IMG/VR virus record: IMGVR_UViG_3300027301_000002
Strand: one strand, 5' to 3'
Source: a virus
Lineage: Duplodnaviria > Heunggongvirae > Uroviricota > Caudoviricetes
Length of the DNA stretch: 64,000 bases
The position numbers were made by a program, and so were the translations under genes. Under the pieces are notes generated by a model. That model worked only from the letters and a program-made list of their open reading frames with translations, did not search any database and was not told the DNA's origin. This document shows positions 33,583-50,109 of the stretch, one piece after another. The number at the start of each line of letters is the position of its first letter. The first letter of the stretch is position 1.

Positions 33583-34108
33583 AGATGAAACATCAGAGAA
33601 GAAACCAGCAAAAAAGAACAAAGAGTTCTACGTAAAACCGGAAGAGTTTCATGATGCAATCTTGGCGTACTACCAAGACGAAACAAATGAGATTCCGCAT
33701 ATCCTTGGCGATATGGTTCAAAAGATTGCTACTAAAATTGGGTTTCTTCCCAACTTCAAAGACTATTCATATAAAGAAGAAATGATTGGCGATGCTGTTG
33801 TTCGAATGATATCAGCTCTCTCAAAAAAGAAATATGATATCAAAATTGGTAACCCATTTTCATACTTCACCAAGATTGCTATCAATACTTTTATTGGCAG
33901 AATTAAAAAAGAGAAACAAAATCAAAATACGCTCAAGGCATACCGCGAAGAACAGTTTGCAAATTTGGCAAACGATGAAGCTTGGTATCAAACACGACGC
34001 CAGCGGATTGCAGAATCGGATAGCAATGAATTCTATTACGAGAATGATACGGCTAGCTTTTACGATGATAGCAAAGACACTAGACTAGAGAATGATGATG
34101 AAATTTAA
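33554..34108 (+). CDS. gp55: Late-transcription sigma factor (T4 gp55-like)
   Basis: FYV...F...I, NFKDYSYKEEMIGDA, NPFSYFTKIAIN.FI.RIKKEK. Start reassigned to ATG 33554. Confidence 0.85.
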   Translation: MKKLKSKKSEDETSEKKPAKKNKEFYVKPEEFHDAILAYYQDETNEIPHILGDMVQKIATKIGFLPNFKDYSYKEEMIGDAVVRMISALSKKKYDIKIGNPFSYFTKIAINTFIGRIKKEKQNQNTLKAYREEQFANLANDEAWYQTRRQRIAESDSNEFYYENDTASFYDDSKDTRLENDDEI

Positions 34109-35135
34109 TTCTGATCGGATCGGTGTCATTGCAGATTTGCATTTAGGTGTTTATCGAGACAGCACTTTATGGCATACATTGGCATTAGAATTTGCCAGAT
34201 GGATGTCCAAGACGTATAAGCTTCTAGATATCAAAGACATTGTTATTAGCGGTGATATCTTTCACAATAGAAAAGAAGTGTGTGTCAATACAATGCACAC
34301 CGCATCTGAATTTTTCAAGATTCTTGAAGATTTTAATATTATCCTAGTTACAGGGAATCATGATGCATTTTATCGGGATCGGTCTGATGTCAACTCATTG
34401 AATATCCTCACCGGGTGGCAGAATATCCATGTCGTATCGGAAGCCACATCTATCACACACAACGACAAAAAAATAACATTTGTCCCATGGGCTACCAATA
34501 TGGATACGGTAGACAAGTGTGACATCATGTTCGGCCATTTTGAAATAACTAGCTTTACCATATCCGAAGGACAAGTGTGTGAACATGGTGAGTCTGCTTC
34601 TAAACTTTTGTCATTATGTCCTCTTGTATTAACAGGTCATTTTCACATGGCTGATATGAGGAAGTATGATAACGGACGCATCATATACGTGGGATCTCCA
34701 ATGGAATTGAGCTGGGGAGAGGCATACACACCAAAGTATATTTGGGTGCTTGATATCAATGAAAGCAAAGCAAGAGCGATAGAAAATAAAATATCACCAA
34801 AGCATCTGAAATTTAAAAGTTCGGCTATACGCGAGAATGTTGCTGAATATCGCTCAGCGATAGCAAATAACTTCATTCGTATACAGATAGATGAAGAACT
34901 TTCTGTTTCAGATATTGAGTTGATGCAATCGCAAATATCAGCACTGAAACCTATTGAATTGAATTTTGAGTATCAATCATCTGGAACTATTACGCTCGAT
35001 GATATCGATGAAGATTTTGATCCTATTGATATTGAAAAGACCTTCAAAGAAATAGTTGATAAGCTATCAGAGGAAGCACCAAAGAAACAAAGAATACTTC
35101 AAACACTAGTTGAAATATATAGACAAGTTAGTTAA
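34092..35135 (+). CDS. gp47: Recombination nuclease, Mre11/SbcD-like (T4 gp47)
   Basis: ADLHLG, GDIFH, GNHD, FGHFE, TGHFH, YVGSP. Confidence 0.9.
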   Translation: MMMKFNSDRIGVIADLHLGVYRDSTLWHTLALEFARWMSKTYKLLDIKDIVISGDIFHNRKEVCVNTMHTASEFFKILEDFNIILVTGNHDAFYRDRSDVNSLNILTGWQNIHVVSEATSITHNDKKITFVPWATNMDTVDKCDIMFGHFEITSFTISEGQVCEHGESASKLLSLCPLVLTGHFHMADMRKYDNGRIIYVGSPMELSWGEAYTPKYIWVLDINESKARAIENKISPKHLKFKSSAIRENVAEYRSAIANNFIRIQIDEELSVSDIELMQSQISALKPIELNFEYQSSGTITLDDIDEDFDPIDIEKTFKEIVDKLSEEAPKKQRILQTLVEIYRQVS

Positions 35136-35146
35136 TTTTACAAAAC

Positions 35147-35476
35147 ATGAATACAAACTTATTGCAGCCCGACGCCGACGTTGTTAAAACAGGCTTAGAA
35201 ATACCACAGTCATTAGACGGCATCCTTGTTGATAATGATGACACATGCATTTCGGTACAGACATCTGATGCGATGTTCAAATCATTTGAAAATGACCCAG
35301 ACAATATAAACATATCAAATCTCTATACACCACAAGAGTCAATTGACTTGACGGATCTTTTTAATGCTTTATCTCCTTATAAGTCACAGACCAACGGGAT
35401 ACCAACATTGGACTTTGATGACATTATGAAAAGTATTGACGATGATATAAAAAGCAGAATGAATGATGAAGGCTGA
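35147..35476 (+). CDS. Acidic hypothetical protein
   Basis: Tiled ORF after gp47. Confidence 0.45.
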   Translation: MNTNLLQPDADVVKTGLEIPQSLDGILVDNDDTCISVQTSDAMFKSFENDPDNINISNLYTPQESIDLTDLFNALSPYKSQTNGIPTLDFDDIMKSIDDDIKSRMNDEG

Positions 35477-35482
35477 TCAATT

Positions 35483-36265
35483 ATGAAAATAGGAATAGGA
35501 ATCATTACATGTAATCGTCCAGAGTTTTTAAAAAAATTATGGGCGACCATGCCAGACTATATTGATGATATAGTCATCGTCAATGATGGGAATAAAATCG
35601 ATAATATAGAAGGAGCACATATTATAAACAACCCCAAAAAAATACAAGTTGGTGGATCAAAAAATGTCGCGATGAAATATCTTATCGAACAAAAATGTGA
35701 TTACATCTTCACCTTAGAAGATGACATTTTAATCGAGGATCCGATGGTGTTTTTGAATTACATCAATGCGAGCAAGTCAACAGGAATTTGTCATTTTAAT
35801 TTTGGATTTTCGAATCGTGAAAATTTAGATGCATCTTTACAACCGGTTTATAAAAAAGTTATCGAATACCCAGACGGAACGAAAATTATATTAACACCAA
35901 ACATACTCGGTGCTCTTTCTTTTTATACAAGAGATGCGTTGATGGAAATTGGGCTACATAATCGTGTATTCAACAAAGGACACGGAGATCATCCAGAGCT
36001 AACGTATAGAGCATACAAGCACGGGTATACAACGCCGTTTTGGTGGTTTGCTGACATATATAATAGTTGGAGCATGATTAAAAATCAATCAAATATGTCA
36101 ACAGATAGTACGATTAGAAATAACAATTTTTGGCAGTCATTCAACGAGGCGAACGATTCATTTAAAGTGCTGCACGGTTACAAAATGACTGAAGTACCAT
36201 ATGAGGGCGAAGAAAAAACAATCGAAGTGCTCAAACAATTAAAAAATAACAAACAATTAAAATGA
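35483..36265 (+). CDS. GT2-family glycosyltransferase
   Basis: IGIITCNR, IVNDG, FTLEDD. Confidence 0.8.
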   Translation: MKIGIGIITCNRPEFLKKLWATMPDYIDDIVIVNDGNKIDNIEGAHIINNPKKIQVGGSKNVAMKYLIEQKCDYIFTLEDDILIEDPMVFLNYINASKSTGICHFNFGFSNRENLDASLQPVYKKVIEYPDGTKIILTPNILGALSFYTRDALMEIGLHNRVFNKGHGDHPELTYRAYKHGYTTPFWWFADIYNSWSMIKNQSNMSTDSTIRNNNFWQSFNEANDSFKVLHGYKMTEVPYEGEEKTIEVLKQLKNNKQLK

Positions 36266-36933
36266 AAATAAAAAAAGCTTTAAACCATTATTTCACATAT
36301 CCTGATAACGTAAAAGTACATCTTCCATGGTCACCTACAGGTCTTGGAGATGCCATTGATTGGCCAGAAGAAGTATTGAAATTATTTAATTATTCTCCAG
36401 GTTCTGGCCGCAATTTGTATATCTATCAATATTTTCAAAATCTAAAAAAACAATCAATTAAAAGCATTGATTATTTAGAAGTGGGGACGTTTATTGGCAG
36501 TAGCGTTATCGACATCTACAAATTTTCAACACTATTTGATATTAATGTAAATATTACAGTTGTTGATACATTTGAAGGGACTACAAATGAGGACATGAGC
36601 GGCTTCATGAGTCACTGGGATGAAACTAATAAATTCAAAAATAAATTTCTAGAAAATTTAAAGGAAAATAACATCACAAATGTTAACATATACGAGGGTT
36701 ACAGCGATGATTTTTTCAAGACAAATAAAAAAACATATGACTTAATATATATCGACGCAGATCATTCATATGAAGCAGTTGTTCGTGATATTAATAATTC
36801 ACTACAAATTTTAAATAAAAATGGTAAACTTACCGGCGACGACTATCATCCTATATGGGGTGTGTTTAATGCTGTAAATTCATTTGCAAATAGATTCAAT
36901 GTAAACATTATCGGTGAGATGTGGTATATTTAA
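36262..36933 (+). CDS. Class I SAM methyltransferase (Methyltransf_24-like)
   Basis: LEVGTFIGSS, DTFEG, DLIYIDADHSYE, GDDY. Confidence 0.8.
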   Translation: MKIKKALNHYFTYPDNVKVHLPWSPTGLGDAIDWPEEVLKLFNYSPGSGRNLYIYQYFQNLKKQSIKSIDYLEVGTFIGSSVIDIYKFSTLFDINVNITVVDTFEGTTNEDMSGFMSHWDETNKFKNKFLENLKENNITNVNIYEGYSDDFFKTNKKTYDLIYIDADHSYEAVVRDINNSLQILNKNGKLTGDDYHPIWGVFNAVNSFANRFNVNIIGEMWYI

Positions 36934-36976
36934 CAGACTTAAGTAACATAATAGTAATAGTTAAATTATTGAAATA

Positions 36977-37759
36977 ATGAAAGATAAAATCGGCGTTGGA
37001 ATCACAACATATAATTCGGAATCATACTATAAGGCTTTGTATGAATCTTTGCCCCTTGATAGAATTGATTGTCTAGTAACAGTAAACGGAGGTGACAAAT
37101 ATCAAAATAATTATTCAGGCAAGTGGATTCAGCATACTCAAAATAAATATCCATCTGTGTGTCGGAATGAATGTGTGGAATATTTACTCGAACAAGGATG
37201 TGAGCATATCTTTATTATTGAGGATGATATGATTATTTTAAATCCAAGCATATTCGATGAATATATTAGGGTTTCAAAAGGAACTGGATTAAAGTATTTT
37301 TGCTTTGTAAGCACAGGGGCTGGTTCAGGAGATGCGCATCACCGAACACCAAAAACGATAATTGATTATCCTAATAACTTGCAAGTTGCATTTTATCAAA
37401 ATATGTGCAATGAATTTACGTACCACCATAGATCGGCTTTTCTAGATACAGGTAAATATGATGAAAATATGCGCGATGGTTTTGATGTCGACATGGTATA
37501 TAGAGAATCAAAAAAAGATTATAGCTCATTATTTTGGTGGTTTGCTGACATAGTTAATTCAGATGGGTTTATAATGAATAACCCAATCGCAACGAGTCGC
37601 TTACAAACCAATAGAGCTGATGGAAGCAGAGCGGATATTATAGATAAAATATGGGAGTATTTTTATAATAAACACCAAATCCGTGTTAATAATATCCCAC
37701 AGCCAAGTCTTAGAGATTTGAAATTTAAACTTATGCAAGCATATGAATCAAAAGATTGA
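36977..37759 (+). CDS. GT2-family glycosyltransferase, paralogue of 35483-36265
   Basis: IGVGITTYN, FIIEDD; shares FWWFADI.NS with the first copy; both are 260 aa. Confidence 0.75.
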   Translation: MKDKIGVGITTYNSESYYKALYESLPLDRIDCLVTVNGGDKYQNNYSGKWIQHTQNKYPSVCRNECVEYLLEQGCEHIFIIEDDMIILNPSIFDEYIRVSKGTGLKYFCFVSTGAGSGDAHHRTPKTIIDYPNNLQVAFYQNMCNEFTYHHRSAFLDTGKYDENMRDGFDVDMVYRESKKDYSSLFWWFADIVNSDGFIMNNPIATSRLQTNRADGSRADIIDKIWEYFYNKHQIRVNNIPQPSLRDLKFKLMQAYESKD

Positions 37760-38525
37760 CGTATTTTTACCAATAGCACCAAAAGATCTTTTCAGGTCTA
37801 GACTCGTCATTAAATATCTTTTACGAAATGTGCCTGATATTGCAACGATTCATATTTGTACACCCACACCAATTTCACCAATATTTGAAACAGGCGAGCA
37901 TGATATCTGTTATCATTTGGATCGAGAGATTCTACCATATGCCACTCCACAAAAATGGAAATTTAGACCGAATTGGATTCTGCAGCAATTTTTGAAACTC
38001 TTCCAAAACGTTACAAAAACAGAATATTACATGACAATTGATTGCGACGCTATTGTTACAAATCGTCTGGAATTATTTGAAGAAAATAGACCAATATGGT
38101 ATTACGGATATGATCAATGTGAGCCCCAATATTTTGAATTCAATAAAAAAATGTTCAATTTAGATAGAAAAGCAACACATACATATATTGGCGATATCGG
38201 TTTCTTTAACAAAAATATTATTCAACACCTAGTAAATTATGTAAATTTAACACCACAACAAATAATTGAAAAGAGCTATGATATAATTTCATATAATTGT
38301 CACCCGTCTGAATTTGAATTATATGGCAATTTTGTTGAAATGTTTTACCCCGAGCTATATATATCAAAAAGGTTAAAAGATTTAAGAACTGGCAAACTCC
38401 AATCAGATCCGTACGATACTAACTGGAGTCTTGATGAAACCCTACAATTAATTCAAAGAGGCATATCAGAAAAATACGATGTAGTTAATATGCATTCTTG
38501 GTGCATACCTTCCCATGCGTGGTAA
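37743..38525 (+). CDS. GT-A-like protein (DUF6492-like)
   Basis: WILQQFLKL, YMTIDCD, SEFELYGNF. Confidence 0.55.
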   Translation: MNQKIDVFLPIAPKDLFRSRLVIKYLLRNVPDIATIHICTPTPISPIFETGEHDICYHLDREILPYATPQKWKFRPNWILQQFLKLFQNVTKTEYYMTIDCDAIVTNRLELFEENRPIWYYGYDQCEPQYFEFNKKMFNLDRKATHTYIGDIGFFNKNIIQHLVNYVNLTPQQIIEKSYDIISYNCHPSEFELYGNFVEMFYPELYISKRLKDLRTGKLQSDPYDTNWSLDETLQLIQRGISEKYDVVNMHSWCIPSHAW

Positions 38526-38538
38526 TAATTAAAAGCAA

Positions 38539-39411
38539 ATGAAAGTAATTTTAATACATTTATCGCCACATAAATTGCCGATTAATGACAAAATGATATA
38601 TGACTATACGTACGACGAGTTGCCTCCTTATGCAGATATCTGTATCAAACAATGCAAGCATTATCTATGCGACCCGATTGTCGTTGATGATCAATACGTC
38701 ATGAAATACATGCAGCATGACATACAAAAATTATATACAATCTGCAAAGAAAAATATCCATCACAATCAACAAATGCGTTTTGGTTCACAACGATGATAC
38801 GTTTATTTGTACTGTATCATTTTTGTAAGAATAATAATATTAACGAATTTATTCACATGGAGTATGATAATTTAATATACTCCGACATGACGATGCTTAA
38901 AAAATTACAGCCATCGGTGTACTTCACTAGAGTCGATCAATATAAAAGCTCTGCAGGGTTTGTTTATTGCAATTCCTTGATTCACTTAGAACAATTTATC
39001 TCGAAAATGATAAAATTGCTGAACATTGGCGAACAATCATTATACGCCAATAATGTTATTCCATATTTTACACCAATATCAGAAATGGTAATGATTGATT
39101 TAATATATAAGGGAACACAAAATATAATAGATTATCTTCCCGCATTGCCGTTCGAACCAGCAGACGACAATTTTAATAATTTAGGGATATTATTTGACGG
39201 GGCTTCTTATGGGCAGTACATAGGAGGCACAAATAACGGACATACTAAGGGATTCTGTGATCCGAATCATTATGTTGGCAAATGCATTATTGATAATAAG
39301 CTAGATGTTATATTCGATAACCAAAAGCCCTACGCTGTACATGATAACAAACTAATACCAATTGCAAATCTTCACATCCATAGCAAACAACTAGAGCTGT
39401 ATGTGAGTTAA
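38539..39411 (+). CDS. Putative nucleotide-sugar transferase
   Basis: FWFTTMIRLF, HMEYDNL, FDGASYGQY, NLHIHSK. Confidence 0.45.
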   Translation: MKVILIHLSPHKLPINDKMIYDYTYDELPPYADICIKQCKHYLCDPIVVDDQYVMKYMQHDIQKLYTICKEKYPSQSTNAFWFTTMIRLFVLYHFCKNNNINEFIHMEYDNLIYSDMTMLKKLQPSVYFTRVDQYKSSAGFVYCNSLIHLEQFISKMIKLLNIGEQSLYANNVIPYFTPISEMVMIDLIYKGTQNIIDYLPALPFEPADDNFNNLGILFDGASYGQYIGGTNNGHTKGFCDPNHYVGKCIIDNKLDVIFDNQKPYAVHDNKLIPIANLHIHSKQLELYVS

Positions 39412-39484
39412 TTCGGCCAAATAATAGATTAATGAAAAAGTATAGTATAATAAATAGTATAATAAATAGATTATAGTTCAGCTC

Positions 39485-40594
39485 ATGAAGAAAGAAAGAA
39501 ATAAGTGCATTTTGTGTGATAATACACTTTACAATATATTAGAATTTAAACTCCCATGTTTTATGGGTGTCGTAAAAGAAGCATCTCACACAGAAGATTT
39601 TAAATTATCTTTAACACAATGTCAAGAGTGTGGAGAGATACAAACAAAAGAGCTATTTGATGTAAATATTGTATACCAAAACAACCATAACATAAACACA
39701 GTTGGTAGTATTTGGGAAAATCATTATATAGAATTTGCGAGGTTTATAAAAAATGATATCATCAATAAATCTATATTAGAAATAAGTGATCCTTCGGCCA
39801 AAATAGCAAAATTGTCTACAGAATTTGCATCATGGGATATAATAGAACCAAATCCAGAAAATATAAAAATTGAAAACGTAAAATTCACACGAGGATTTTT
39901 CGATGAAAATTTCAAGACACAAAAAAAAGATATTATAATCCATTCGCATTTGCTGGAACATATGCACGACCCAATATCTTTTTTAAAGCAGTGTCATGAT
40001 ATCTTGAAGGATGATGGTATAATGGTATTTTCAATTCCAGATATGGATTTCTTGCTAAACGCCGGATACTCGCCTGGTAATATACTTCATTTCGAGCACA
40101 CATATTTTATAAATAAAGATGTAGTTCACTATATAGCAAAAAAAACAGGATTTGAAGTAAGCGAATTCTTTTTTTATAAAAATCATTCTGTGTTTTTTAA
40201 ATTAAAAAAAATTACACCCACTAACGAAAATATAAAACCAATTAAATTGGAATTAGGCAATAAATTTACAAATAATTTTACACACCACCTATCTAACATA
40301 AAAGACATAAACAAAATCACAAATGTTAGCACAGACGAAATATATCTATTCGGAGCTCATGTATCGTCGCAATTTTATATATCAAATGGGCTAGATACAT
40401 CAAAAATCACTACCATAATAGATAACGCACCTAGTAAATCTGGTAAATTTTTATTTGGCACGGAACTGCGAGTCGAACAACCCGAAATCTTGACAAACAA
40501 AAAATGCACAATAATATGTAGTCATGTTGGCGTATATTTTGACGAAATAGTATCAAAATTAAGAAGCATTAATCAGACAATTAATATAATATGA
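39485..40594 (+). CDS. NDP-sugar C-methyltransferase-like protein
   Basis: N-terminal CILC...CQECG zinc site, HLLEH..DP, EHTYF, LFGAH, IIDNAPSKSGKF. The glycine-rich SAM loop looks degenerate (LEISDP). Confidence 0.7.
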   Translation: MKKERNKCILCDNTLYNILEFKLPCFMGVVKEASHTEDFKLSLTQCQECGEIQTKELFDVNIVYQNNHNINTVGSIWENHYIEFARFIKNDIINKSILEISDPSAKIAKLSTEFASWDIIEPNPENIKIENVKFTRGFFDENFKTQKKDIIIHSHLLEHMHDPISFLKQCHDILKDDGIMVFSIPDMDFLLNAGYSPGNILHFEHTYFINKDVVHYIAKKTGFEVSEFFFYKNHSVFFKLKKITPTNENIKPIKLELGNKFTNNFTHHLSNIKDINKITNVSTDEIYLFGAHVSSQFYISNGLDTSKITTIIDNAPSKSGKFLFGTELRVEQPEILTNKKCTIICSHVGVYFDEIVSKLRSINQTINII

Positions 40595-41340
40595 AAACGG
40601 GATTCATCATAACAGCATATAAACAAATCGATCTATGCACCAACACTATTAATATGATAAGAAAAGACTATGGTATATTAAAGACCTCACCTATTATAAT
40701 AGTAACAACATCAGAAGAAGATATCGGTTTTAAAGAGTTAGAAAATATAAATGACAATATATTCGTAATTGAAAATAAAGATGTACCTAGGTGCACGCCA
40801 GTCAATTACCTAGGAATAGAACATTACGGATTCAACTTAAGCAAGAGAATATTAATTTCATTGCAGAAGGGGTTAGATAAAGCGATCGAACTAAATTTAG
40901 ATGTTATAATACATTTACATTCAGACACTTACTGGCAATCTAATAAAATTGATATTTTGACAGAATATTTAAAAGATGTTTACGAAAATAAATTACTATT
41001 CAGTGGTGATTTATCTTTGATCGATGTGGATTCGCCAATAACAAGAGATATCCATTTTGAACCAGAAGGATTAATTATAAACATAAAAGAATCTGTAAAA
41101 TGCGGGTTTGCAAAATTTGAAAATATTTGGGCTGGTGATTTTAATTCACACAATTATGGAAGTATAGAAGCCATGATAGGACAATTTGCAGTGTGGTGTC
41201 TATCAAAACAGACAATATTATCAAACGAACCACTGCCAAAGATATATAGAGAAAAGGTAAAAATACGCCAGACAAGACCATGTCATGGCATATTCGAAGA
41301 TGGCCTCGTAAATCAAAAAATAATCCAACCATACGACTAA
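40591..41340 (+). CDS. Putative GT-A-like glycosyltransferase
   Basis: GFIITAYKQ, IHLHSDTY. Confidence 0.45.
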   Translation: MKTGFIITAYKQIDLCTNTINMIRKDYGILKTSPIIIVTTSEEDIGFKELENINDNIFVIENKDVPRCTPVNYLGIEHYGFNLSKRILISLQKGLDKAIELNLDVIIHLHSDTYWQSNKIDILTEYLKDVYENKLLFSGDLSLIDVDSPITRDIHFEPEGLIINIKESVKCGFAKFENIWAGDFNSHNYGSIEAMIGQFAVWCLSKQTILSNEPLPKIYREKVKIRQTRPCHGIFEDGLVNQKIIQPYD

Positions 41341-41443
41341 AACATTCAGAATAGTCACAAATAGAAACGGATGGATTTATAACATATAGGTGTTCATGAT
41401 TGCAAAAATGTTTAGTGATAATAAATAATATTTAAAATACAAC

Positions 41444-42145
41444 ATGCTAGAAGAATTAAATAATTTAGCTATAGTAGTACAAGGCCCCAGTGCTAATGTA
41501 GATAAAATCAAAGAAGCATATGGGGAGTACAATTTAATAATATCTACGTGGGAAGGATCTGAAACATTATATGATGCAAACGATAACGTTATCTTTAATA
41601 AGATACCAGAGGATAGAGGATTTATGAATTTTAATTTACAGATATTGTCAACATTAAAAGGCATAGAAGAGGCTAGTAATAGGGGATATAAATACGTATT
41701 AAAAATAAGATCAGATATAATCCCAACCAATTTTACAAGGTTTATTTCCAATCTTGATAAAAATAAATTAAACATGTTTTCATGGAAAAATCATGTCTGT
41801 TACACAACCTGCCCTGGATATTTAACGGATCATTTAATGCTCGGGACGGTAGAGGATATGTACACGTTATGGGACATAAAAGACACAACATGGATTGAAG
41901 TACCTGAAATACAATTAACACAACAGTATATAACAAAACTACAAGGAAAAAGAGATATTCGTTTTTTTATAAACGACCTAGGAATTGAAAATGATTTTTA
42001 TTGGATAAAGCGTAATATATATTTATCATGGTTTAGGGAAATGTCACAAGATGGAGTTCGAGGCATGCACTTGTGCAACGATACCAAAGAATACATACAT
42101 AGCGAGTATATTAATTTTTTACCACCCGAAAGGAGAATCAAATAA
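41444..42145 (+). CDS. WavE-like lipopolysaccharide synthesis protein
   Basis: AIVVQGP, IISTWEG, NLQILSTLKG, VLKIRSD, DHLMLG, PEIQL. Confidence 0.65.
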   Translation: MLEELNNLAIVVQGPSANVDKIKEAYGEYNLIISTWEGSETLYDANDNVIFNKIPEDRGFMNFNLQILSTLKGIEEASNRGYKYVLKIRSDIIPTNFTRFISNLDKNKLNMFSWKNHVCYTTCPGYLTDHLMLGTVEDMYTLWDIKDTTWIEVPEIQLTQQYITKLQGKRDIRFFINDLGIENDFYWIKRNIYLSWFREMSQDGVRGMHLCNDTKEYIHSEYINFLPPERRIK

Positions 42146-43515
42146 TGATAAAATTAATTATCTTTGATTTAGACGGAGTCTTGATAGATACCAAAGCTCT
42201 ACATTATCAATGTCTAAATACTGCATTAGAATCAATTGACCCAAAATATACAATATCATTTAACGAGCATCTTATAAAATACGACGGATTAAAAACAGGC
42301 GAAAAATTAAAATTGTTATCAAAGGAAAAGAATCTACCAGAACACCTACATAGGCAAATATGGATAGAAAAACAACGACTGACTCTTAATTCATTAGATG
42401 ATATAAAAGAATCTGATAAGTTAAAACACCTACTTGATAATTTATCCCAAGATGGTTATAAGATTGCATGTTGTACTAATTCTATTCGAAAAACAGTAAA
42501 TACTATTCTCTCAAATTTAGGAATAATATCGCATTTTGATTTGATATTATCTAATGATGATGTTGAAAATAGCAAACCACATCCGGAGATATACTGGACC
42601 GCGATGAGTAAGCTAAAGATGATGCCAGGCGAAACATTGATAGTCGAAGATTCACCAAATGGTTTGATTGCCGCATGCAGAAGCAATGCAAATGTTTTTA
42701 GAGTAAATTCACCAAATGACTTGACACATGGATCATTATACGATAAGATAAATACCAATAAAAATAACATGAAAATACCAAAATGGAAAGGCGAAAATCT
42801 TAATGTTTTAATTCCGATGGCAGGAGCAGGCAGTAGATTCCAAAGTGCAGGGTATACATTTCCAAAACCACTAATCGATGTCCGCGGAGACCCGATGATA
42901 CAGCGCGTAGTTGATAGTTTGAATATCGATGCAAATTATATATATATTATCCAAAAAGAGCATAGGCAGAAATATAATCTAGATACTTTACTAAAATTAA
43001 TAACACCAAAATGTAGTATAGTCGAAGTTGATGGTATAACCGAAGGTGCTGCATGCACTACGCTCATTGCGAAGGAATTAATCGATAATGATGTGCCGTT
43101 ATTAATTGCAAATTCTGATCAATTTATCGAATGGGATAGCAGCGAGTTCTTCTATAAAATGATCGAACAAAAAGCAGATGGTGGTATGCTAACGTTTAAA
43201 TCTACACACCCAAAATGGTCGTTTGCCAAAGTCGACGAAAGTAATAATATCACTGAAGTTGCAGAAAAGAACCCAATATCCGACATAGCATCTGTCGGTA
43301 TATATTACTGGCAAAAAGGCAGCGACTATGTCAAATACGCAGAACAGATGATTGAGAAGAATATTCGTGTTAATAATGAATTTTATATCTGCCCAGTTTT
43401 TAACGAAGCGATTTGTGGCGGCAAAACAATCAAAATACATAATATCGAAAAGATGTGGGGATTGGGTACACCAGAAGATCTCGAGTACTTTATTAAAAAT
43501 TACACAACCAATTAA
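42145..43515 (+). CDS. HAD phosphatase fused to a sugar-phosphate nucleotidyltransferase
   Basis: FDLDGVL...KPHPEIY...VEDS, then IPMAGAGSRF...PKPLI...WGLGTPEDL. Confidence 0.85.
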   Translation: MIKLIIFDLDGVLIDTKALHYQCLNTALESIDPKYTISFNEHLIKYDGLKTGEKLKLLSKEKNLPEHLHRQIWIEKQRLTLNSLDDIKESDKLKHLLDNLSQDGYKIACCTNSIRKTVNTILSNLGIISHFDLILSNDDVENSKPHPEIYWTAMSKLKMMPGETLIVEDSPNGLIAACRSNANVFRVNSPNDLTHGSLYDKINTNKNNMKIPKWKGENLNVLIPMAGAGSRFQSAGYTFPKPLIDVRGDPMIQRVVDSLNIDANYIYIIQKEHRQKYNLDTLLKLITPKCSIVEVDGITEGAACTTLIAKELIDNDVPLLIANSDQFIEWDSSEFFYKMIEQKADGGMLTFKSTHPKWSFAKVDESNNITEVAEKNPISDIASVGIYYWQKGSDYVKYAEQMIEKNIRVNNEFYICPVFNEAICGGKTIKIHNIEKMWGLGTPEDLEYFIKNYTTN

Positions 43516-43527
43516 CCAACAAAAAAT

Positions 43528-44193
43528 ATGAATAAAGAAGATGCAGATCTGCTCTCAGTATTAATTGGGTCATGTGATAAATATCGCCACCTTTGGGAAA
43601 ATTTTGACATTCTGTTTAAAAGATATTGGCAATTAAAAACAAAAAATATTTTTGTAAGCGAAACGATTAAGATACAATATAAAGATTATATTAGTGTAAC
43701 TCCTGGGGCTAATTTACAATGGACTGATATCATGTTAAAAGGTCTTAATGAAATTAAGACACCATATGTTTGTCTTATTCTTGAAGATTATTATTTGACA
43801 GAGCCGATTACGTCGAAATTTATAAGAGAGCATATTCAAATGTTAGAGCATCATAATGCGGATAAAATATTATTTGATAGGTTATACCCACCAGGCATAT
43901 ATGAATTAAAACATCTTGAAAATAATTTGTATATATTCAATCAACATAGTGATTATTTAAATTCCGTACAACCTGCAATTTGGAAAACCGAGTATTTGAA
44001 ACATTTACTAGAATCACATTCTTGCAATCCGTGGCAATTTGAAGTAGATTGCAACAGATATACCCAACAACTTAATCCAAAAATTCTCTTAAATGCAAGA
44101 GATCATTCTATGTATTTTAACTACACGAGATCCGGTGGAATAATAGCAGATGGATGGCAGGATGTTTTTGCTAAAGAAGATTTGACACCATAA
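43528..44193 (+). CDS. Putative glycosyltransferase-like protein
   Basis: GSCDKY..LW, LILEDY, QPAIWK, PWQFE. Confidence 0.45.
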   Translation: MNKEDADLLSVLIGSCDKYRHLWENFDILFKRYWQLKTKNIFVSETIKIQYKDYISVTPGANLQWTDIMLKGLNEIKTPYVCLILEDYYLTEPITSKFIREHIQMLEHHNADKILFDRLYPPGIYELKHLENNLYIFNQHSDYLNSVQPAIWKTEYLKHLLESHSCNPWQFEVDCNRYTQQLNPKILLNARDHSMYFNYTRSGGIIADGWQDVFAKEDLTP

Positions 44194-44228
44194 TCTGGAC
44201 GGAGATAATATATAAAATAGAACATTAC

Positions 44229-44816
44229 ATGAACACACTTATTATTAATCTAAAGCATAGGCAAGATAGGTTTGAGCATATTACTAATGAGATTAAAAAA
44301 TTAAGCAATGTTATTAGCAATGTATATAGGGTTGAGGCAATTATCGACGAGACAAGAACTGCATTCAAATCACACAAACAATGCATCAGAATAGCAAAAG
44401 AACGCAAATGGCCGTATGTTTTAATTCTCGAAGATGACGCAATGTTTGAAGACAACGCGAATGATATTTTGCTGAGATCAGTAAACGAGATACAAAATCA
44501 TAATTGGGATGTACTATATCTTGGTGCATCTTTGCTTGCGCATACTACAAGAGTATCCGACTGCTTAATAAAATTAACGCACGCATATGCACTACATGCA
44601 TATATTGTAAATTCGCAAATGTATGATACTATTTTAAACTTACCACAAATATATGAAATGGATGTTCACTATAACCTGATTATGCCTCAACATAATATGT
44701 ATATGTGTGATCCTATGATAGCGTATCAAATGCCAAATTATTCTGATTTACAAAACGGATATAGGGATTACAACGCAGCGATGAAAGAAGCCTATAGTGA
44801 ATTAAAACCGCGATAA
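44229..44816 (+). CDS. GT25-family glycosyltransferase
   Basis: INLKHRQDR, SH, LILEDD, WDVLYLG, HAYIV. Confidence 0.75.
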   Translation: MNTLIINLKHRQDRFEHITNEIKKLSNVISNVYRVEAIIDETRTAFKSHKQCIRIAKERKWPYVLILEDDAMFEDNANDILLRSVNEIQNHNWDVLYLGASLLAHTTRVSDCLIKLTHAYALHAYIVNSQMYDTILNLPQIYEMDVHYNLIMPQHNMYMCDPMIAYQMPNYSDLQNGYRDYNAAMKEAYSELKPR

Positions 44817-44905
44817 AATTCATTTGAATACGAGCTTTTTTGCAATAAATACAAATGATATGATTTGATTTGTAAAGAGTCGGTTGTAATTTTTATAGAT
44901 ATTTT

Positions 44906-45436
44906 ATGATAAAAGTTCTCGGAGACGATATAATTATAGATGAAGATATTTTTATAAAACAGGATTTAATTATCAATGGTTCACATGTAGCCATTGATAA
45001 GGGATTTTATTGTACAACCAACACTACTATTGGTAGTTATGTGCATGTCGGCCCTTATGTAACAATAATAGGAGGTAAAGATGGCTCATTTACTTCAAAG
45101 GGATTTAATAATATAATGGCGGGTGCTAGGATTATATGTGGGTCTGATAGGTTTGATGGTAGTGGTTTATTTGGTGCAATGATACCAAAGGATTTAAAAG
45201 GAACACAAATTATAAAACCCATTGTGATGGAAGAGTTTTCTAATATAGGTACAAATTCTATCGTATTGCCCGGATCTATACTAAGAAAAGGTGTTTTACT
45301 AGCAGCAGGTAGTTTATTGATGGGAGATACAGAAGAATGGGGCGTTTATAAAGGAAATCCGGCAGTGTTAGTTAAAAAAATTAATCCTGAAAAAATAATC
45401 AAAAATGCTAAAAAATTAGGCTATGATGAATTTTAA
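44906..45436 (+). CDS. Hexapeptide-repeat (left-handed beta-helix) acyltransferase
   Basis: IGSYVHVGPYVTI, IGTNSIVLPG, GNPAVLVK. Confidence 0.85.
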   Translation: MIKVLGDDIIIDEDIFIKQDLIINGSHVAIDKGFYCTTNTTIGSYVHVGPYVTIIGGKDGSFTSKGFNNIMAGARIICGSDRFDGSGLFGAMIPKDLKGTQIIKPIVMEEFSNIGTNSIVLPGSILRKGVLLAAGSLLMGDTEEWGVYKGNPAVLVKKINPEKIIKNAKKLGYDEF

Positions 45437-46250
45437 AAAAGTTAAAATCAATATGATTGCTGGCGGGTTTCAACACAGTATATCATCAAACGACCTGCCT
45501 CCAAAATTTATTGAATGGACCAAAGACGGCTCGGCATCGATTTCTGTTTATATAGATCATGGAATATATCATCAAACAACACCACATACAAAAAACTATG
45601 GATGGATATGTGAATCTAAAACAATTATACCCGATATTTATTCATGGGCCGAAAATAATTCTGATTTACTGAAGACAAAATTCATAAAAGTTTTTACACA
45701 TGATGCACAATTAGCCAAAACGTCAGATATATTTCAATTAACACAATGTAGTGGCAAATCATATTTTAAGCAGGGCGAAATATATCCAAAAACTAAATTA
45801 ATATCAATGATCGCATCAAATAAAATAATGTGTGCAGACCATCAATATAGACAGCACATAATTCAAAAATTTTCAAGTAAATGTGATCATTTCGGCAGAG
45901 GTTACAATGAAATACAAAACAAAGAAAGTGGTTTAAAAGATTATTGCTTTTCAATAGCAATGGAAAATGCAACGTATTCCAACATGTTTACCGAAAAAAT
46001 AACAGACTGCTTTATGACAGGCACAATCCCGATTTACTACGGTATGCCAAATATTAGTGATTACTTTGATACTGATGGTATAATAATATTGGATGATAAT
46101 TTTAAAGTCGAAGATCTGTCTTTTGAACTGTATTATTCTAAAATAAAATCAGTTGAAAAAAATCTTCAATTAGCCGTTGACTTGTTGATGGCGGAAGATT
46201 ATATTTATAAAAACTTTATTGAAAATAGATACATAAAATATGTCATTTGA
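45423..46250 (+). CDS. GT10-like (fucosyltransferase-type) glycosyltransferase
   Basis: YCFSIAMEN, FTEKITDCFMTGTIPIYYG. Confidence 0.7.
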   Translation: MMNFKKVKINMIAGGFQHSISSNDLPPKFIEWTKDGSASISVYIDHGIYHQTTPHTKNYGWICESKTIIPDIYSWAENNSDLLKTKFIKVFTHDAQLAKTSDIFQLTQCSGKSYFKQGEIYPKTKLISMIASNKIMCADHQYRQHIIQKFSSKCDHFGRGYNEIQNKESGLKDYCFSIAMENATYSNMFTEKITDCFMTGTIPIYYGMPNISDYFDTDGIIILDDNFKVEDLSFELYYSKIKSVEKNLQLAVDLLMAEDYIYKNFIENRYIKYVI

Positions 46251-46836
46251 AACCGTTAATGAATTTGAAAAGGCTGTAGCTAATTTTTTTGGTTCACCAT
46301 ATGCTGTCGCAGTAGATAGTTGTACTCATGGCATTGAATTATGCTTAAGATATACAAAGGAGACAAAAATAAATGTACCTAAAAGAACGTATTTATCAGT
46401 GCCTTTTTTAGCGGAAAAAATGGGACTACAAAGAGTGTGGAGAGATGAAGAATGGGAAGACTACTATGTACTTAACTACAGTAGTAAGAAGATAATAGAC
46501 GCTGCGGTTCTTTGGAGAAAGGATAGCTATATACCAAATACATTTATGTGTATTAGCTTTCAATATCAAAAGCATCTTTCACTGGGTCGTGGTGGAATGA
46601 TTTTGATTGACAATAAAAATGATTACGCTATACTTAAAAAAATGTCTTACGATGGTAGGTTACCAAATATACCATGGAGAGAACAAAATATTGATACAGT
46701 TGGATATCACTACTATATGACACCAGAGGTAGCCGATTTAGGATTAAAAAAAATAAAACAGGCAATTGATACTGCACCTAAGAAATGGCTAGTTACTGAT
46801 TGGCCCGACCTGACAAAAATGGAAATTTTTAAATAA
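46240..46836 (+). CDS. Short DegT/DnrJ/EryC1/StrS-family PLP enzyme
   Basis: FEKAVA.F.G..YAVAVDSCT, IIDAA, SFQYQKHL..GRGGM; only 198 aa. Confidence 0.75.
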   Translation: MSFETVNEFEKAVANFFGSPYAVAVDSCTHGIELCLRYTKETKINVPKRTYLSVPFLAEKMGLQRVWRDEEWEDYYVLNYSSKKIIDAAVLWRKDSYIPNTFMCISFQYQKHLSLGRGGMILIDNKNDYAILKKMSYDGRLPNIPWREQNIDTVGYHYYMTPEVADLGLKKIKQAIDTAPKKWLVTDWPDLTKMEIFK

Positions 46837-46840
46837 AATT

Positions 46841-47878
46841 ATGGAAAAAGAAAAAATTAATTATAAAGGCCGCCGGGCGTTTCTGACGGGTACTAACGGA
46901 CAGGACGGAAGCTACCTGGTCGAATATTTACTGGATTTGGGTTATGAAGTTCACGGCATTATAAGAAGAAATTCAACTGTAGAATCACAACAAAGCAGAT
47001 TTAGTGAAGATGTCAGACATAAAGTTAATATTCATTACGGAGATTTACTAGATCAGGGTGGTTTAGAAAAATTATTGGATCAAATACAACCGGATGAGAT
47101 TTATAACCTTGCAGCCCAAAGCCATGTCAGGATTAGTTTTGACATTCCACAATTTACAATTCAAACAAACGCTATTGGTGTTCTTAATATTTTAGAAGCA
47201 TATAGACGTTCTTGCCCAAGTGCTAGATTTTATCAAGCGAGTTCGTCTGAAATGTTTGGAAATTCTGTAGATATAGATGGGTTTCAGAGAGAAACAACCC
47301 CCATGAATCCTGTTAGTCCTTATGGCTGTTCTAAAGTTTTTGGTTATAATATCGTCAGAAATTATCGCAACGCATATAAATTGCATGCGTGCAATGGAAT
47401 ATTATTTAACCACGAATCACCAAGAAGAGGGTCAAATTTTGTAACCAATAAAGTAGTCAAAACGGCAGTTGAAATAAAATTAGGATTAACTGATAATTTA
47501 GTATTGGGTAATATGGATTCTTATCGCGATTGGGGCCACTCAAAAGATTATGTAAAAGCAATGCACATGATAGTAAATCATGATATTCCAGATGATTTTG
47601 TTGTGTCAACAATGACAACACATTCAGTTAGAGAAATGGTTGAATATGTTTTTAAAAAATTAGATTTAGATTATACTAAATACGTGTCGCAAGATCAAAA
47701 ATTTTTAAGAGCAGAGGAATTAAAATACTTAAAAGGCGATTCTACAAAAATAAGAAAAACACTAGGATGGGAACCAGAATATAATTTCGAAACGCTCATG
47801 GATGATATGATAGGTGAGTGGACGGCTAAGTTAGAAAAAAACTATGAAAAAAATATATTCAAAAGTTGTGCCAGATAA
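46841..47878 (+). CDS. gmd: GDP-mannose 4,6-dehydratase
   Basis: TGTNGQDGSYL, YNLAAQSHV, YQASSSEMFG, SPYGCSK, NGILFNHESPRRG, RDWGH. Confidence 0.95.
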   Translation: MEKEKINYKGRRAFLTGTNGQDGSYLVEYLLDLGYEVHGIIRRNSTVESQQSRFSEDVRHKVNIHYGDLLDQGGLEKLLDQIQPDEIYNLAAQSHVRISFDIPQFTIQTNAIGVLNILEAYRRSCPSARFYQASSSEMFGNSVDIDGFQRETTPMNPVSPYGCSKVFGYNIVRNYRNAYKLHACNGILFNHESPRRGSNFVTNKVVKTAVEIKLGLTDNLVLGNMDSYRDWGHSKDYVKAMHMIVNHDIPDDFVVSTMTTHSVREMVEYVFKKLDLDYTKYVSQDQKFLRAEELKYLKGDSTKIRKTLGWEPEYNFETLMDDMIGEWTAKLEKNYEKNIFKSCAR

Positions 47879-48257
47879 ACTACTTCACATAATAAACAGA
47901 TTAAGTGAAATAGAATCAAGAACCGAAATAGTGCCGGAAAATAATTTTATTCAATGTGCATCATTAAATATGCCAAAAAATAAAACATTCCCCCCTCATA
48001 AACATATAACAAAAAAAAGAACCCATGAGAATCAGATAGCGCAGGAATCTTGGATTGTAATAAAGGGCAGTGTTAAGTGTTTTTTATATGATCTAGACGA
48101 TACTATCATCGCTGAGGAAGTTCTTCTACCAGGTGACGCAAGTTTCACTCTTTATGGAGGCCATACATATCTAATATTAGAAGACGATACAATAGTTTAC
48201 GAATATAAAACTGGCCCATACGAAGGCGCAAATTTAGATAAAGAATTTATATCTTAG
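47844..48257 (+). CDS. Cupin-fold sugar isomerase/epimerase (WbuC-like)
   Basis: PHKH, QESW, GGH, YEYKTGPY. Confidence 0.65.
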   Translation: MKKIYSKVVPDKLLHIINRLSEIESRTEIVPENNFIQCASLNMPKNKTFPPHKHITKKRTHENQIAQESWIVIKGSVKCFLYDLDDTIIAEEVLLPGDASFTLYGGHTYLILEDDTIVYEYKTGPYEGANLDKEFIS

Positions 48258-48260
48258 TTC

Positions 48261-48289
48261 TTGATTTTTTTAACATAGTGCTTTATAGT
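48261..48289 (+). promoter_or_regulatory. Sigma70-like promoter for gp46
   Basis: TTGATT-17 nt-TATAGT. Confidence 0.55.
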
Positions 48290-48297
48290 AATTCACA

Positions 48298-50109
48298 ATG
48301 AAGCGAGTTGTCTTAAAAAAATTAAAGATCAAAAATTTTCTAAGCATTGGAGATGAATGGGTCGAACTGGATATCAAACCAGGTCTAACTTTCATTACAG
48401 GATATAATCACGACAAAAATAGCTCAAACGGAGTCGGTAAATCTGCATTGTTTACCGACTCCTTTTTCTTTTCTCTTTATGGCAATACTCTCCGAAAGCT
48501 AAACAAAAAAGAAATAGCTAATAACATTACAGGCAAGCCCTGCAAATCAGTTATTACATTTGACGTATACGACAACCACAACAAGGATGAATATATTCTT
48601 ATGAGGCAGTTGTCGCCTTCAAAAATGCAGCTGTATAAAAACGGTATTGATATAACCCAAAATATCCGTGAGACTGACAACGTAATCGAGAACACCATAA
48701 ATGCTACTGCAGATGTATTCAAATACGCGGTTATTATGACGCTCAATGATTCTATCGGATTTATGAATCAGAATAAAAATGACCGCAGAAAATTCATTGA
48801 AAGCATATTGCATCTAGGTGTCTTTACTGACATGGCAAAGGTTCATTCAAAGATTATTTCCGAAACCAAGAAAGATTTTGAAGTAGCGTCGAGTAGATTA
48901 GATGACTCGAAAAAAACTCTTGCTCAGTATGAAGAGCAGGCACAAAAGAGCATTGAAAGAAGACAAAGCAAAGTCACAGAGTTACAGGAACGTATTCAAT
49001 CAAATGCAACAGAAATTGGTAGATTAACGGAAAAATTAAATTCAATCGTAATACCTGATGCAGAAAAGTTGGCAATCAATAAACAACTCATTGAGCAAAA
49101 ACAAGACGAACTTCGAAAAACTAAAGATGTTGTTTTGACTAATAAAACACGCATTAGCTTTGAAATAAAGATACACAAACAAAGGATATCACATATTAGC
49201 AATCACGGCCCTTCATGTGATAAATGTCTGCGTGTTTTTACCGAATCCGACATTAAAAACCAAGATGATGAAATTGAAAAATTAAAACAATCAATAGAAG
49301 AACATACGCTCCAAATAACAAAATGGACTAATGTGCATAATGAAATTGAATCAAGATTAATAAAATGTAGCGATGCATTGAATGAAATTAATCAAAAGCT
49401 GGTCTATGGAGAAACAAAGAAAAGCGAAAAATCAAGCATAGAGTCACGCATTAACCAACTAAGAAATTGGACAGCCACTATTGAAAGTGATTTGGCTAAT
49501 CTAAATCTAGAAGATGATGATTTTACGAAAATAATCAATACAGCAGTCAGCCATCTTAACACCATCGAAATTAAAGTCAAAGAAGAGGCAGATAAAATTG
49601 AAATTCTTGAAATAGTTAAGTTCTTATTATCTGAAGAAGGCATTAAGAAATTTATTGTCAAAAAAATTCTCAAGCTGCTTAATTCAAGACTTGCACATTA
49701 TCTAAAGGCATTAAACGCCCCATGTACATGCACATTTGATGATGTGTTCGAAGAGAAAATTAACAATGATAAAGGAATTGAATGTTCTTATGAATCGTTT
49801 TCTGGCGGCGAAAGAAAAAGAATCGATCTTGCAATGTTATTCACATTCCAAGACATTCGCCGGTTACAGTCTAATACAACTATTAACATTAGTGTGTATG
49901 ATGAATTAATTGATTCTGCTTTATCCAGCGAAGGTGTTACTAGTGTTCTAGATATGCTTAAAGAAAGATCGGTGAAGTACAGTGAAGCAATGTATATCAT
50001 CACACACCGAAAGGAAAATGCAACACTTATGAACGACGCCAATGTAATCTTTTTAGAGAAAAAAAATGGCATAACCGAATTGACATTGAGGGAAACTGCT
50101 ACTATTTAA
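48298..50109 (+). CDS. gp46: Recombination ATPase, Rad50/SbcC-like (T4 gp46)
   Basis: IKNFLSIG, NGVGKS, coiled coil with CDKC zinc hook, FSGGE signature, VYDE, ITH. Confidence 0.93.
   Translation: MKRVVLKKLKIKNFLSIGDEWVELDIKPGLTFITGYNHDKNSSNGVGKSALFTDSFFFSLYGNTLRKLNKKEIANNITGKPCKSVITFDVYDNHNKDEYILMRQLSPSKMQLYKNGIDITQNIRETDNVIENTINATADVFKYAVIMTLNDSIGFMNQNKNDRRKFIESILHLGVFTDMAKVHSKIISETKKDFEVASSRLDDSKKTLAQYEEQAQKSIERRQSKVTELQERIQSNATEIGRLTEKLNSIVIPDAEKLAINKQLIEQKQDELRKTKDVVLTNKTRISFEIKIHKQRISHISNHGPSCDKCLRVFTESDIKNQDDEIEKLKQSIEEHTLQITKWTNVHNEIESRLIKCSDALNEINQKLVYGETKKSEKSSIESRINQLRNWTATIESDLANLNLEDDDFTKIINTAVSHLNTIEIKVKEEADKIEILEIVKFLLSEEGIKKFIVKKILKLLNSRLAHYLKALNAPCTCTFDDVFEEKINNDKGIECSYESFSGGERKRIDLAMLFTFQDIRRLQSNTTINISVYDELIDSALSSEGVTSVLDMLKERSVKYSEAMYIITHRKENATLMNDANVIFLEKKNGITELTLRETATI

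Follow-up and report, generated by a model that had tools for sequence, protein, structure and literature searches.

A hypervariable glycan-gene locus between genes 47 and 46 in an uncultured clade of riverine T4-like phages

We analysed a 64,000-nt window (bases 64010-128009) of IMG/VR record IMGVR_UViG_3300027301_000002, a complete 195,888-bp virus genome with direct terminal repeats, and focused on a glycan-synthesis island that occupies window positions 35483-48257, between gp47 and gp46. Sixteen open reading frames (ORFs, labelled g1-g16), all on the plus strand and spaced by gaps of -35 to 103 nt, fill this interval and split the Mre11/Rad50 pair (Metallophos and SMC_N domains), so the ORF map and profile searches bear out what an earlier reading, made from the sequence alone, had described. 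That reading counted about eight glycosyltransferases (GTs); the cluster is there, and profiles together with Atlas structures raise the number to nine GT-like genes (g1, g3, g4, g5, g7, g8, g10, g11 and g13). The other seven encode two methyltransferases, a HAD-nucleotidyltransferase fusion, an N-acyltransferase, a half-size DegT, Gmd and a cupin, and profile searches confirmed all of the families named earlier, including WavE; for the DegT-like enzyme the family (PF01041) stood, and its size needs correcting to a half-length 198 aa. Large sugar-gene islands in aquatic T4-like phages are of an already known kind. What is new here is the 47/46 location in an uncultured riverine clade, strain-level allelic replacement with mapped boundaries, a three-layer island history, and a half-size DegT that belongs to a conserved, abundant family. 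Coordinates of the island and its flanks are given in Table 1.

Table 1. Genes and signals at the gp47-gp46 junction, in window positions, with the match or model behind each assignment.
Feature	Position	Strand	Support
gp55-like late sigma factor, backbone	33554..34108	+	phrog_234 late sigma transcription factor, E 5.8e-24
gp47, Mre11-SbcD-like nuclease, left flank	34092..35135	+	Metallophos_2 and Metallophos
Small acidic ORF, 109 aa, D/E-rich	35147..35476	+	no family match; conserved across clade
g1, glycosyltransferase, g3 paralogue, layer A	35483..36265	+	phrog_2456, E 5e-19
g2, S-adenosylmethionine (SAM) methyltransferase, layer A, patchy	36262..36933	+	Methyltransf_24, E 1.3e-12
g3, glycosyltransferase, conserved core	36977..37759	+	phrog_2456, E 2.4e-15
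g4, DUF6492 protein, counted GT-like, conserved core	37743..38525	+	PF20102, E 9e-7, above cut-off
g5, GT-A-like protein, conserved core	38539..39411	+	Atlas model, pTM 0.90
Spacer with two tandem ATAAATA motifs (39450, 39462)	39412..39484	+	consensus match
g6, methyltransferase, layer B	39485..40594	+	Methyltransf_23, E 7e-11
g7, GT-A-like protein, layer B	40591..41340	+	Atlas structure TM 0.58-0.70 to GT8/GT2 clusters
g8, WavE-like protein, layer B	41444..42145	+	PF07507, E 3e-7, above cut-off
g9, HAD (beta-phosphoglucomutase-like) + sugar-1-phosphate nucleotidyltransferase fusion, layer B	42145..43515	+	HAD_2 E 2e-35; NTP_transferase E 2e-11
g10, GT-A / GT2-like protein, layer B	43528..44193	+	Atlas model pTM 0.90
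g11, GT25-family glycosyltransferase, layer B, most diverged allele	44229..44816	+	PF01755, E 4.7e-8
g12, left-handed beta-helix N-acyltransferase, layer C	44906..45436	+	Hexapep; NeuD/PglB/VioB family match
g13, GT10-type (fucosyltransferase-like, GDP-sugar) glycosyltransferase, layer C	45423..46250	+	PF00852, E 6e-9
g14, half-size DegT-type pyridoxal phosphate (PLP) enzyme, 198 aa, layer C	46240..46836	+	PF01041, E 5e-16
g15, GDP-mannose 4,6-dehydratase (Gmd), layer C	46841..47878	+	PF16363, 384 bits
g16, WbuC-type metallo-cupin, layer C	47844..48257	+	TIGR04366, 38 bits (cut-off 42)
Sigma-70-like promoter match TTGATT-N17-TATAGT, ahead of gp46	48261..48289	+	consensus match
gp46, Rad50-SbcC-like ATPase, right flank	48298..50109	+	SMC_N
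Glycosyltransferase after gp46	50122-51378		phrog_7162, E 2.7e-21; weak Glyco_trans_1_2

The phage is known from riverine metagenomes and is uncultured. A T4-like core was detected (UvsY, a UvsW-like helicase, gp55, gp47, gp46, polB, portal, prohead protease and a baseplate wedge), and psbA was not found. Megablast of 18 kb against GenBank phages returned no match, and tblastn against the same collection gave no match for g5 and weak ones for g3; the GenBank phage collection holds no cultured member of this clade. Scans of IMG/VR with single proteins or small alignments yielded three relatives, and the others came from a protein database and contig look-ups. The island has a GC content of 31.9% against 38.6% for the genome, the lowest among 367 windows of equal size, and third-codon-position GC is 26.7% in island genes versus 35.9% in other genes (p = 6e-8), so the A/T-richness that had been judged by eye holds up in the GC and codon-usage check. 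A hydropathy scan found membrane-like hydrophobic segments in none of the 16 island proteins, and among all ORFs of at least 100 aa in the whole 196-kb genome none had five or more. With no polytopic protein genome-wide, the earlier statement that no flippase, polymerase or exporter is present is valid for the entire phage; by the same scan a priming transferase (WecA/WbaP type), a flippase or transporter, a polymerase and a ligase are all absent from the complete genome.

The arrangement is not an artefact of one assembly. The order g6 to g16, gp46, glycosyltransferase, polB recurs in at least 24 independently assembled contigs, and the g11/g12 and g16/gp46 junctions are both spanned, at no less than 99% identity, by contigs of three metatranscriptome libraries and one DNA library. 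An assembly chimera or host insertion, the outcome that the sequence-only reading had named as fatal to its proposal, is ruled out by these recurring and junction-bridging contigs.

Comparison with relatives showed that the 47/46 junction varies far beyond this one genome. Cyanophage S-CAM9 has a single 90-aa ORF between gp47 and gp46, and in L051, a distant marine relative whose gp46 is 38% identical, gp47 runs over the start of gp46 and the site is empty. Glycan genes occupy the site in all closer-clade members examined, and their content differs in nine related loci (the clade loci compared include G001, G002, G003, L023, L024, L048, L049 and L050). G001 (gp46 98%, gp47 99-100% identical) keeps g3-g5 and then carries a different 5.9 kb encoding an RXYLT1_C-like protein, GT25, GT10 with FucT_N, methyltransferases and a short-chain dehydrogenase/reductase (SDR). 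In G002 and G003 (gp46 and gp47 both 75%) g1 and g3-g5 are accompanied by 2.1 kb of different genes. L048, L049 and L050, contigs whose gp46 is about 66% identical, have islands of 5-6 kb, each with yet another gene set; one includes GT92, an SDR and a full C-methyltransferase, a second DUF5672, DUF2334 and GT2, and the remaining one a DAO-like protein. In five of six relatives' islands GC lies below that of the flanks. The junction is therefore a recombination hotspot and the hypervariable glycan locus of the clade, and the view of a single insertion does not survive the comparison, since every clade member examined has glycan genes at 47/46 with different content each time. Among the island genes, g3 is 80-99% identical across all close relatives and g4 74-99%; g1, 34-36% identical to g3 homologues, is in L023 and G002/G003 and missing from G001, while g2 is in L023 and missing from G001, G002 and G003. 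Genes g3-g5 are ancestral to part of the clade. Outside the swappable island, the glycosyltransferase that follows gp46 is a backbone gene. G001, G002/G003 and L023 have it at 79-100% identity; in L048-L050 the position after gp46 is taken by genes of 423-426 aa, and in the island-less L051 by a gene of similar size, a likeness of size alone. We also observed that, on a JGI 3300014656 contig from a distant relative (L052, gp46 39% identical), an IMPDH-like gene and a 1314-aa polB both contain intein-type domains, and that a small group of glycan genes (RXYLT1_C-like, GT47-like, SDR) lies beside ribonucleotide reductase, a few kb ahead of gp46.

The island of this phage is the largest version in the clade and is built of three layers: A (g1-g5), a core set of transferases shared in the clade, B (g6-g11) and C (g12-g16). 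The boundaries were mapped against L023, a strain from a different sample that is 99-100% identical to this phage in the helicase, gp55, gp47, g1-g4, gp46, the following glycosyltransferase and polB (99.5% for gp46). Inside g5, at about 38835-38900, identity to L023 drops from 98-100% to 62-91% and stays there up to 44.8 kb, with about 80% nucleotide identity over g6-g11 and amino acid identities of 88% for g5, 83% for g6, 77% for g7, 84% for g8, 89% for g9, 83% for g10 and 72% for g11. Genes g12-g16 are missing from L023, and identity returns to 99.3% at about 48283, within the promoter-like spacer of gp46, a spacer that differs with each island variant. The 3' part of g5 through g11 is thus an allelic replacement relative to L023. 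Between g7 and g8 the L023 island also holds about 350 nt of non-coding DNA (~8960-9290 of that contig) with the frameshifted N-terminus of an NAD-dependent sugar epimerase/dehydratase; this remnant, a decaying SDR gene, retains a GGFIGNHL-type Rossmann motif.

Layer C has a wider distribution. Genes g12-g16 are 76-91% identical at the amino acid level and 74-78% at the nucleotide level to those on two phage contigs, L018 and L019 (for L018, g12 84%, g13 76% and g15 91%), whose PhoH and dUTPase are merely 28-33% identical to those of this phage and whose other genes are unmatched; the backbone comparison with L018 covers 20.6 kb. Such high identity despite so distant a backbone argues for horizontal acquisition of g12-g16, the part of the earlier proposal of horizontal acquisition that stands, and marks layer C by sequence comparison as a mobile five-gene module exchanged between distant phage lineages. 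The two contigs have a GC content of 33%, close to that of the island. Carriers of layer C are phages from river and marine samples, and the lineages that share it probably infect different hosts. The set of cupin, short DegT and Gmd is linked in many loci, including contigs filed under Prochlorococcus single cells, and occurs at 50-59% identity on a 380-kb, 27%-GC, SAR11-like alphaproteobacterial contig, where the genes after it encode an SDR, the priming transferase Glycos_transf_4, Wzy_C, GT2, GT11 and a DegT of full length. The locus around this bacterial counterpart is of the classical surface-polysaccharide type, and the phage version comes without the membrane parts. A 176-aa gene beside the short DegT in the bacterial locus proved to be neither an acyltransferase nor the missing DegT half.

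The enzymes of layer C suggest what sugar the island may make. The first, g15, scores 388 bits against TIGR01472, just under the cut-off of 415, and its 311 bits to the Arabidopsis GMD structure compare with 122 bits for a GDP-heptose dehydratase. The GxxGxxG (Rossmann) and YxxxK motifs are both present. By these sequence tests g15 supplies the GDP-mannose 4,6-dehydratase that a GDP-perosamine pathway requires, and it would convert GDP-mannose to GDP-4-keto-6-deoxymannose, which the half-size DegT g14 would then aminate. g14 lacks the C-terminal domain of full-length DegT aminotransferases, which are about 370 aa. Across 51 diverse homologues its D87, S106, F107 and K111 do not vary; in the alignment K111 is the counterpart of the PLP lysine K186 of the Caulobacter perosamine synthase, and the catalytic position has Lys and not the His typical of ColD-type 3-dehydratases. 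The AlphaFold2 model (pLDDT 95.9) has GDP-perosamine synthase as its best fold match, with TM 0.67-0.70 over the large domain. g14 is not a gene remnant: besides the invariant residues and the confident fold, proteins of about 200 aa like it form more than 8000 clusters at 90% identity and 470 at 50% identity (E <=1e-10). Members of the short DegT family are known from phages as well as from bacterial genomes such as those of Bdellovibrio, Neomarinimicrobiota and SAR11-like organisms.

The remaining steps are predicted in the same way. The best PDB match of g12 is 3vbi-3vbp (E 1.7e-16), labelled 'galactoside O-acetyltransferase' in the PDB and which we take to be AntD, a 4-amino-4,6-dideoxyhexose N-acyltransferase. 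As a beta-helix enzyme g12 would fill the N-acyltransferase role in an N-acyl-perosamine pathway and acylate the amino sugar, a predicted substrate, and g13, which matches the Helicobacter pylori alpha1,3-fucosyltransferase at E 1.7e-7, may transfer the resulting perosamine-like sugar. The cupin g16, in which H52, H54, H107 and likewise E68 are invariant, may epimerise or isomerise a sugar intermediate; a sequence search of g16 against the PDB returned nothing meaningful. The most likely product of layer C is thus predicted to be a GDP-linked N-acyl-amino-6-deoxy-mannose-type, perosamine-like sugar, with the 3-amino isomer as the alternative. Layer B would supply an NDP-sugar through the fusion protein g9, plus further transferases and a methyltransferase. 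In g9 both HAD motif I (DxDG) and a G-x-G-x-R loop are present, and its PDB matches are 4evw and, weakly, HddC and mannose-1-phosphate guanylyltransferase; its sugar need not be mannose because L023 has g9 without Gmd. Fusions of a beta-phosphoglucomutase-like HAD domain to a nucleotidyltransferase, about 455 aa long, fall in more than 8000 protein clusters, at 66-70% identity. We also saw the same fusion in a large phage glycan cluster beside clamp-loader genes (L025), together with a full DegT, GNAT, SDR, C-methyltransferase, GHMP kinase and SIS isomerase. The C-terminal part of g6 matches Methyltransf_14, a sugar C-methyltransferase family, below cut-off (E 5.6e-4), and g6 is possibly such an enzyme. 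The 'self-contained' pathway that the sequence-only reading proposed finds no support: no reductase, isomerase or proven phosphomannomutase is present.

These properties bear on whether the island is passenger or 'stuffer' DNA, acquired by recombination, kept under no selection for function and serving to fill the capsid, a possibility that was raised for cyanophage lipopolysaccharide (LPS) clusters (PMC3037559). The decayed SDR fragment in L023 speaks for it. We regard this explanation as very improbable, given that all 16 frames are intact and tightly packed, the catalytic residues of the short DegT are invariant and those of g9 and g15 are present, layer C is conserved at 76-91% across distant phages, at least 24 assemblies share the arrangement, and every clade member has glycan genes at the site. 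Cassette swaps on the same backbone and a module shared with unrelated phages argue instead for a function under diversifying selection.

Signals of transcription in and around the island are consensus matches alone. Of the A5T2 heptamers, ATAAATA shows the strongest enrichment upstream of genes in this genome, with 21 of its 68 occurrences no more than 45 nt away from a start. The portal, prohead protease and baseplate wedge genes are among those that it precedes, and the phage encodes gp55. Island sites lie ahead of g6, of g8 (41421) and of g12 (44845). In the spacer ahead of g6 we observed a perfect tandem duplication of AGTATAATAAAT, which yields two ATAAATA cores 12 nt apart, followed by TATAGT. 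The promoter that had been proposed for gp46 has TTGATT and TATAGT elements at a 17-nt spacing and shares the geometry of the phage's own early promoter class, and it remains a consensus match, not proof of a promoter. A sigma-70 consensus scan gave 119 sites against 100 expected and carries no weight by itself. The early class is best seen outside the window: at about 177,900-195,500 of the genome more than 25 small genes on the minus strand each have a near-identical promoter (TTGACA, a 17-nt spacer with CAACCCT, then (GC)TATATT or TATAGT), which looks like an array of short early genes with their promoter class. Close to the end of the genome, one sub-array has an upstream block of roughly 70 nt that is repeated almost verbatim. 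Just outside the island coordinates, the 109-aa acidic ORF between gp47 and g1 is probably the counterpart of the lone small ORF that separates 47 from 46 in other T4-like phages, and could be a DNA mimic or a nuclease partner.

The question that follows is what the sugars are attached to. We lean, tentatively, towards the phage's own virion protein or proteins as the acceptor, which would give a strain-specific glycan coat under diversifying selection. Sugars would be assembled in the cytoplasm with no phage-encoded lipid-carrier, flippase or polymerase step, and the soluble island transferases would glycosylate the virion. The genome fits this in holding soluble transferases and sugar-nucleotide enzymes and no lipid-carrier machinery. 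The proteins without a family assignment have a viral affinity: in confident Atlas models the nearest structures to g5, g7 and g10 are GT-A transferases, mostly from viral clusters (TM 0.52-0.84 to viral clusters and GT-A families for g5, which has no Pfam match, and 0.65-0.90 to viral clusters and GT2 families for g10), and Nucleocytoviricota proteins are among the nearest clusters of g5 and g10; counts of DxD motifs in the GT-like proteins were uninformative. Late-type ATAAATA motifs stand ahead of g6, g8 and g12, and the phage encodes gp55. Finally, the occurrence of layer C in phages of river and marine samples makes dependence on one host's envelope structure unlikely.

Host envelope glycans are a serious rival that the sequence-only reading left unweighed, and we hold them to be a possible, though somewhat doubtful, target. 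Phage enzymes would act at the inner face of the host membrane on host lipid-linked intermediates (lipid A-core, undecaprenyl diphosphate-linked O-units or capsule precursors) for host flippases and ligases to export, and the altered surface could, for example, block superinfection or stop progeny from adsorbing to doomed cells and debris. Such a role is the published reading for the cyanomyovirus and pelagimyophage clusters (PMC7029224, PMC12801897, PMC1079782). The island includes LPS-type families (WavE, GT25 and GT10), the cupin, short DegT and Gmd of the bacterial contig belong to a classical surface-polysaccharide locus, and switching between strains is consistent with selection on a surface antigen. 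A phage acting on the envelope would, however, have to borrow every post-assembly step, as no priming transferase, flippase, polymerase or ligase is found genome-wide; a near-unchanged layer C in lineages with probably different hosts fits poorly with a host-specific acceptor, and the orphan transferases are structurally nearest to viral, not bacterial, clusters.

Several points weigh against a virion acceptor. The assignment is drawn from indirect points, and no result identifies the acceptor. The island is placed in the replication/recombination module and not by virion genes. WavE, GT25 and GT10 are best known from LPS and O-antigen synthesis, as soluble transferases working on host lipid-linked acceptors, and because LPS-type transferases are soluble too, the absence of phage membrane parts leaves the host envelope open as a target. 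Genes g1-g5 run on from gp47 without a spacer (gaps of 11 and 6 nt), which suggests that they are probably co-transcribed with early or middle genes rather than with virion genes, a timing that would also suit action on the envelope. ATAAATA occurs five times inside the island genes too, which are A/T-rich, and the contigs from RNA libraries over the island, for which DNA carry-over is possible, carry no strand, level or timing information and were not counted as proof of transcription. As for the predicted sugar, we know of no half-size (~200 aa) DegT enzyme that has been characterised, and the fold of g16 is a generic cupin that matches both NDP-sugar epimerases and 3,4-ketoisomerases with no clear winner, and its fold search does not tell these roles from a metal-dependent one.

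DNA was the other acceptor proposed in the sequence-only reading; the transferases would then glycosylate a modified base to block host nucleases. The location of the island beside gp47, gp46 and polB in the replication/recombination module, with a further glycosyltransferase after gp46, would suit such a role, and would parallel T4, where the alpha-glucosyltransferase gene adjoins gene 47. To our knowledge, though, no characterised phage DNA modification combines nine transferases with amino-, N-acyl- and methyl-tailoring, and this island exceeds any such system that we know of. PF00303 (the ThyA family, which includes hydroxymethylases) and PF00145 (C5-methyltransferases) are absent from the complete genome, with both controls positive, which leaves no known route to a hydroxymethyl handle; the Tet/JBP profile (PF12851) also had no match in the genome, but the control genomes were silent too, so the missing match does not count as absence. 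Many phages carry GT-A and GT-B enzymes that modify DNA, and the study that describes them places DNA glycosyltransferases beside 5mYOX or ThyS genes (bioRxiv 10.1101/2023.12.21.572611). We consider modification of DNA unlikely.

Combining a virion acceptor with the predicted chemistry leads to a more specific and more doubtful proposal: that 47/46 may be a phage 'serotype' locus, encoding a strain-specific virion oligosaccharide with an N-acyl-amino-6-deoxyhexose made through a half-size PLP aminotransferase and switched by recombination between the conserved flanks. If so, something in rivers would select on phage surface glycans, for instance host defences, decoy binding, grazers or particle adsorption, and natural populations would switch their glycan by homologous recombination, as bacteria switch O-antigens. 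Large sugar clusters have been on record in T4-like phages of aquatic habitats since 2005, and one paper raised the question of whether they serve as stuffer DNA (PMC3037559). The strains described here amount to a natural experiment, in which backbones 99-100% identical differ by the glycan cassette alone with boundaries mapped, and cassettes with and without layer C are defined constructs for the question of the acceptor. The island also exposes two very abundant, uncharacterised enzyme forms, the ~200-aa DegT and the HAD-nucleotidyltransferase fusion.

Among known systems, T-even DNA glucosylation and 5-hydroxymethylcytosine glycan systems resemble this island in having glycosyltransferases in the replication gene region (bioRxiv 10.1101/2023.12.21.572611) and differ from it in that no hydroxymethylase or C5-methyltransferase was found in this phage, which has many more transferases and tailoring enzymes. 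With bacterial O-antigen and capsule loci the island shares a cassette of sugar-nucleotide enzymes and transferases, low GC, conserved flanks and divergent alleles, as well as the cupin, short DegT and Gmd found at 50-59% identity on the SAR11-like contig. Unlike those loci, the phage has no priming transferase, Wzx or ABC transporter, or Wzy/WaaL, whereas the bacterial locus examined has Glycos_transf_4 and Wzy_C.

Virus-encoded glycosylation of virions is known from the capsid glycans of chlorovirus PBCV-1 and the fibril glycosylation clusters of Megavirinae. Glycosylation of the capsid and tail tube of mycobacteriophages has also been described (Freeman et al. 2023, as cited in PMC12619734). 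Like these systems, the island has soluble virus-encoded transferases, Gmd, methyltransferases, no lipid-carrier or export genes, and clade-specific gene sets. It differs in that this phage is known from its genes alone, and the resemblance is one of organisation, sequence similarity not being shown; unlike in mycobacteriophages, the island sits in the replication module and not beside structural genes.

The closest likeness in setting is to the large LPS and cell-wall clusters of T4-like cyanomyoviruses and pelagimyophages, whose function is untested experimentally (PMC1079782, PMC3037559, PMC7029224, PMC12801897). Like the clusters of P-SSM2, S-SM2, S-SSM7, S-SCSM1 and S-SCSM2R and of the pelagimyophages, this island lies in a plastic region of a T4-like aquatic myovirus and gathers many soluble glycosyltransferases with Gmd-type sugar-nucleotide enzymes; its Gmd is 45-48% identical to cyanophage Gmd and its short DegT 51.5% identical to an S-SCSM2R protein. 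Unlike the cyanomyoviruses, this phage is of a different lineage (gp46 27% identical to that of cyanophages, no psbA), and its glycan site is gp47/gp46 and not near hli03 or phoH or in the tail-fibre region. Beyond what those clusters have revealed, strain-level replacement and a three-layer build-up are documented here directly.

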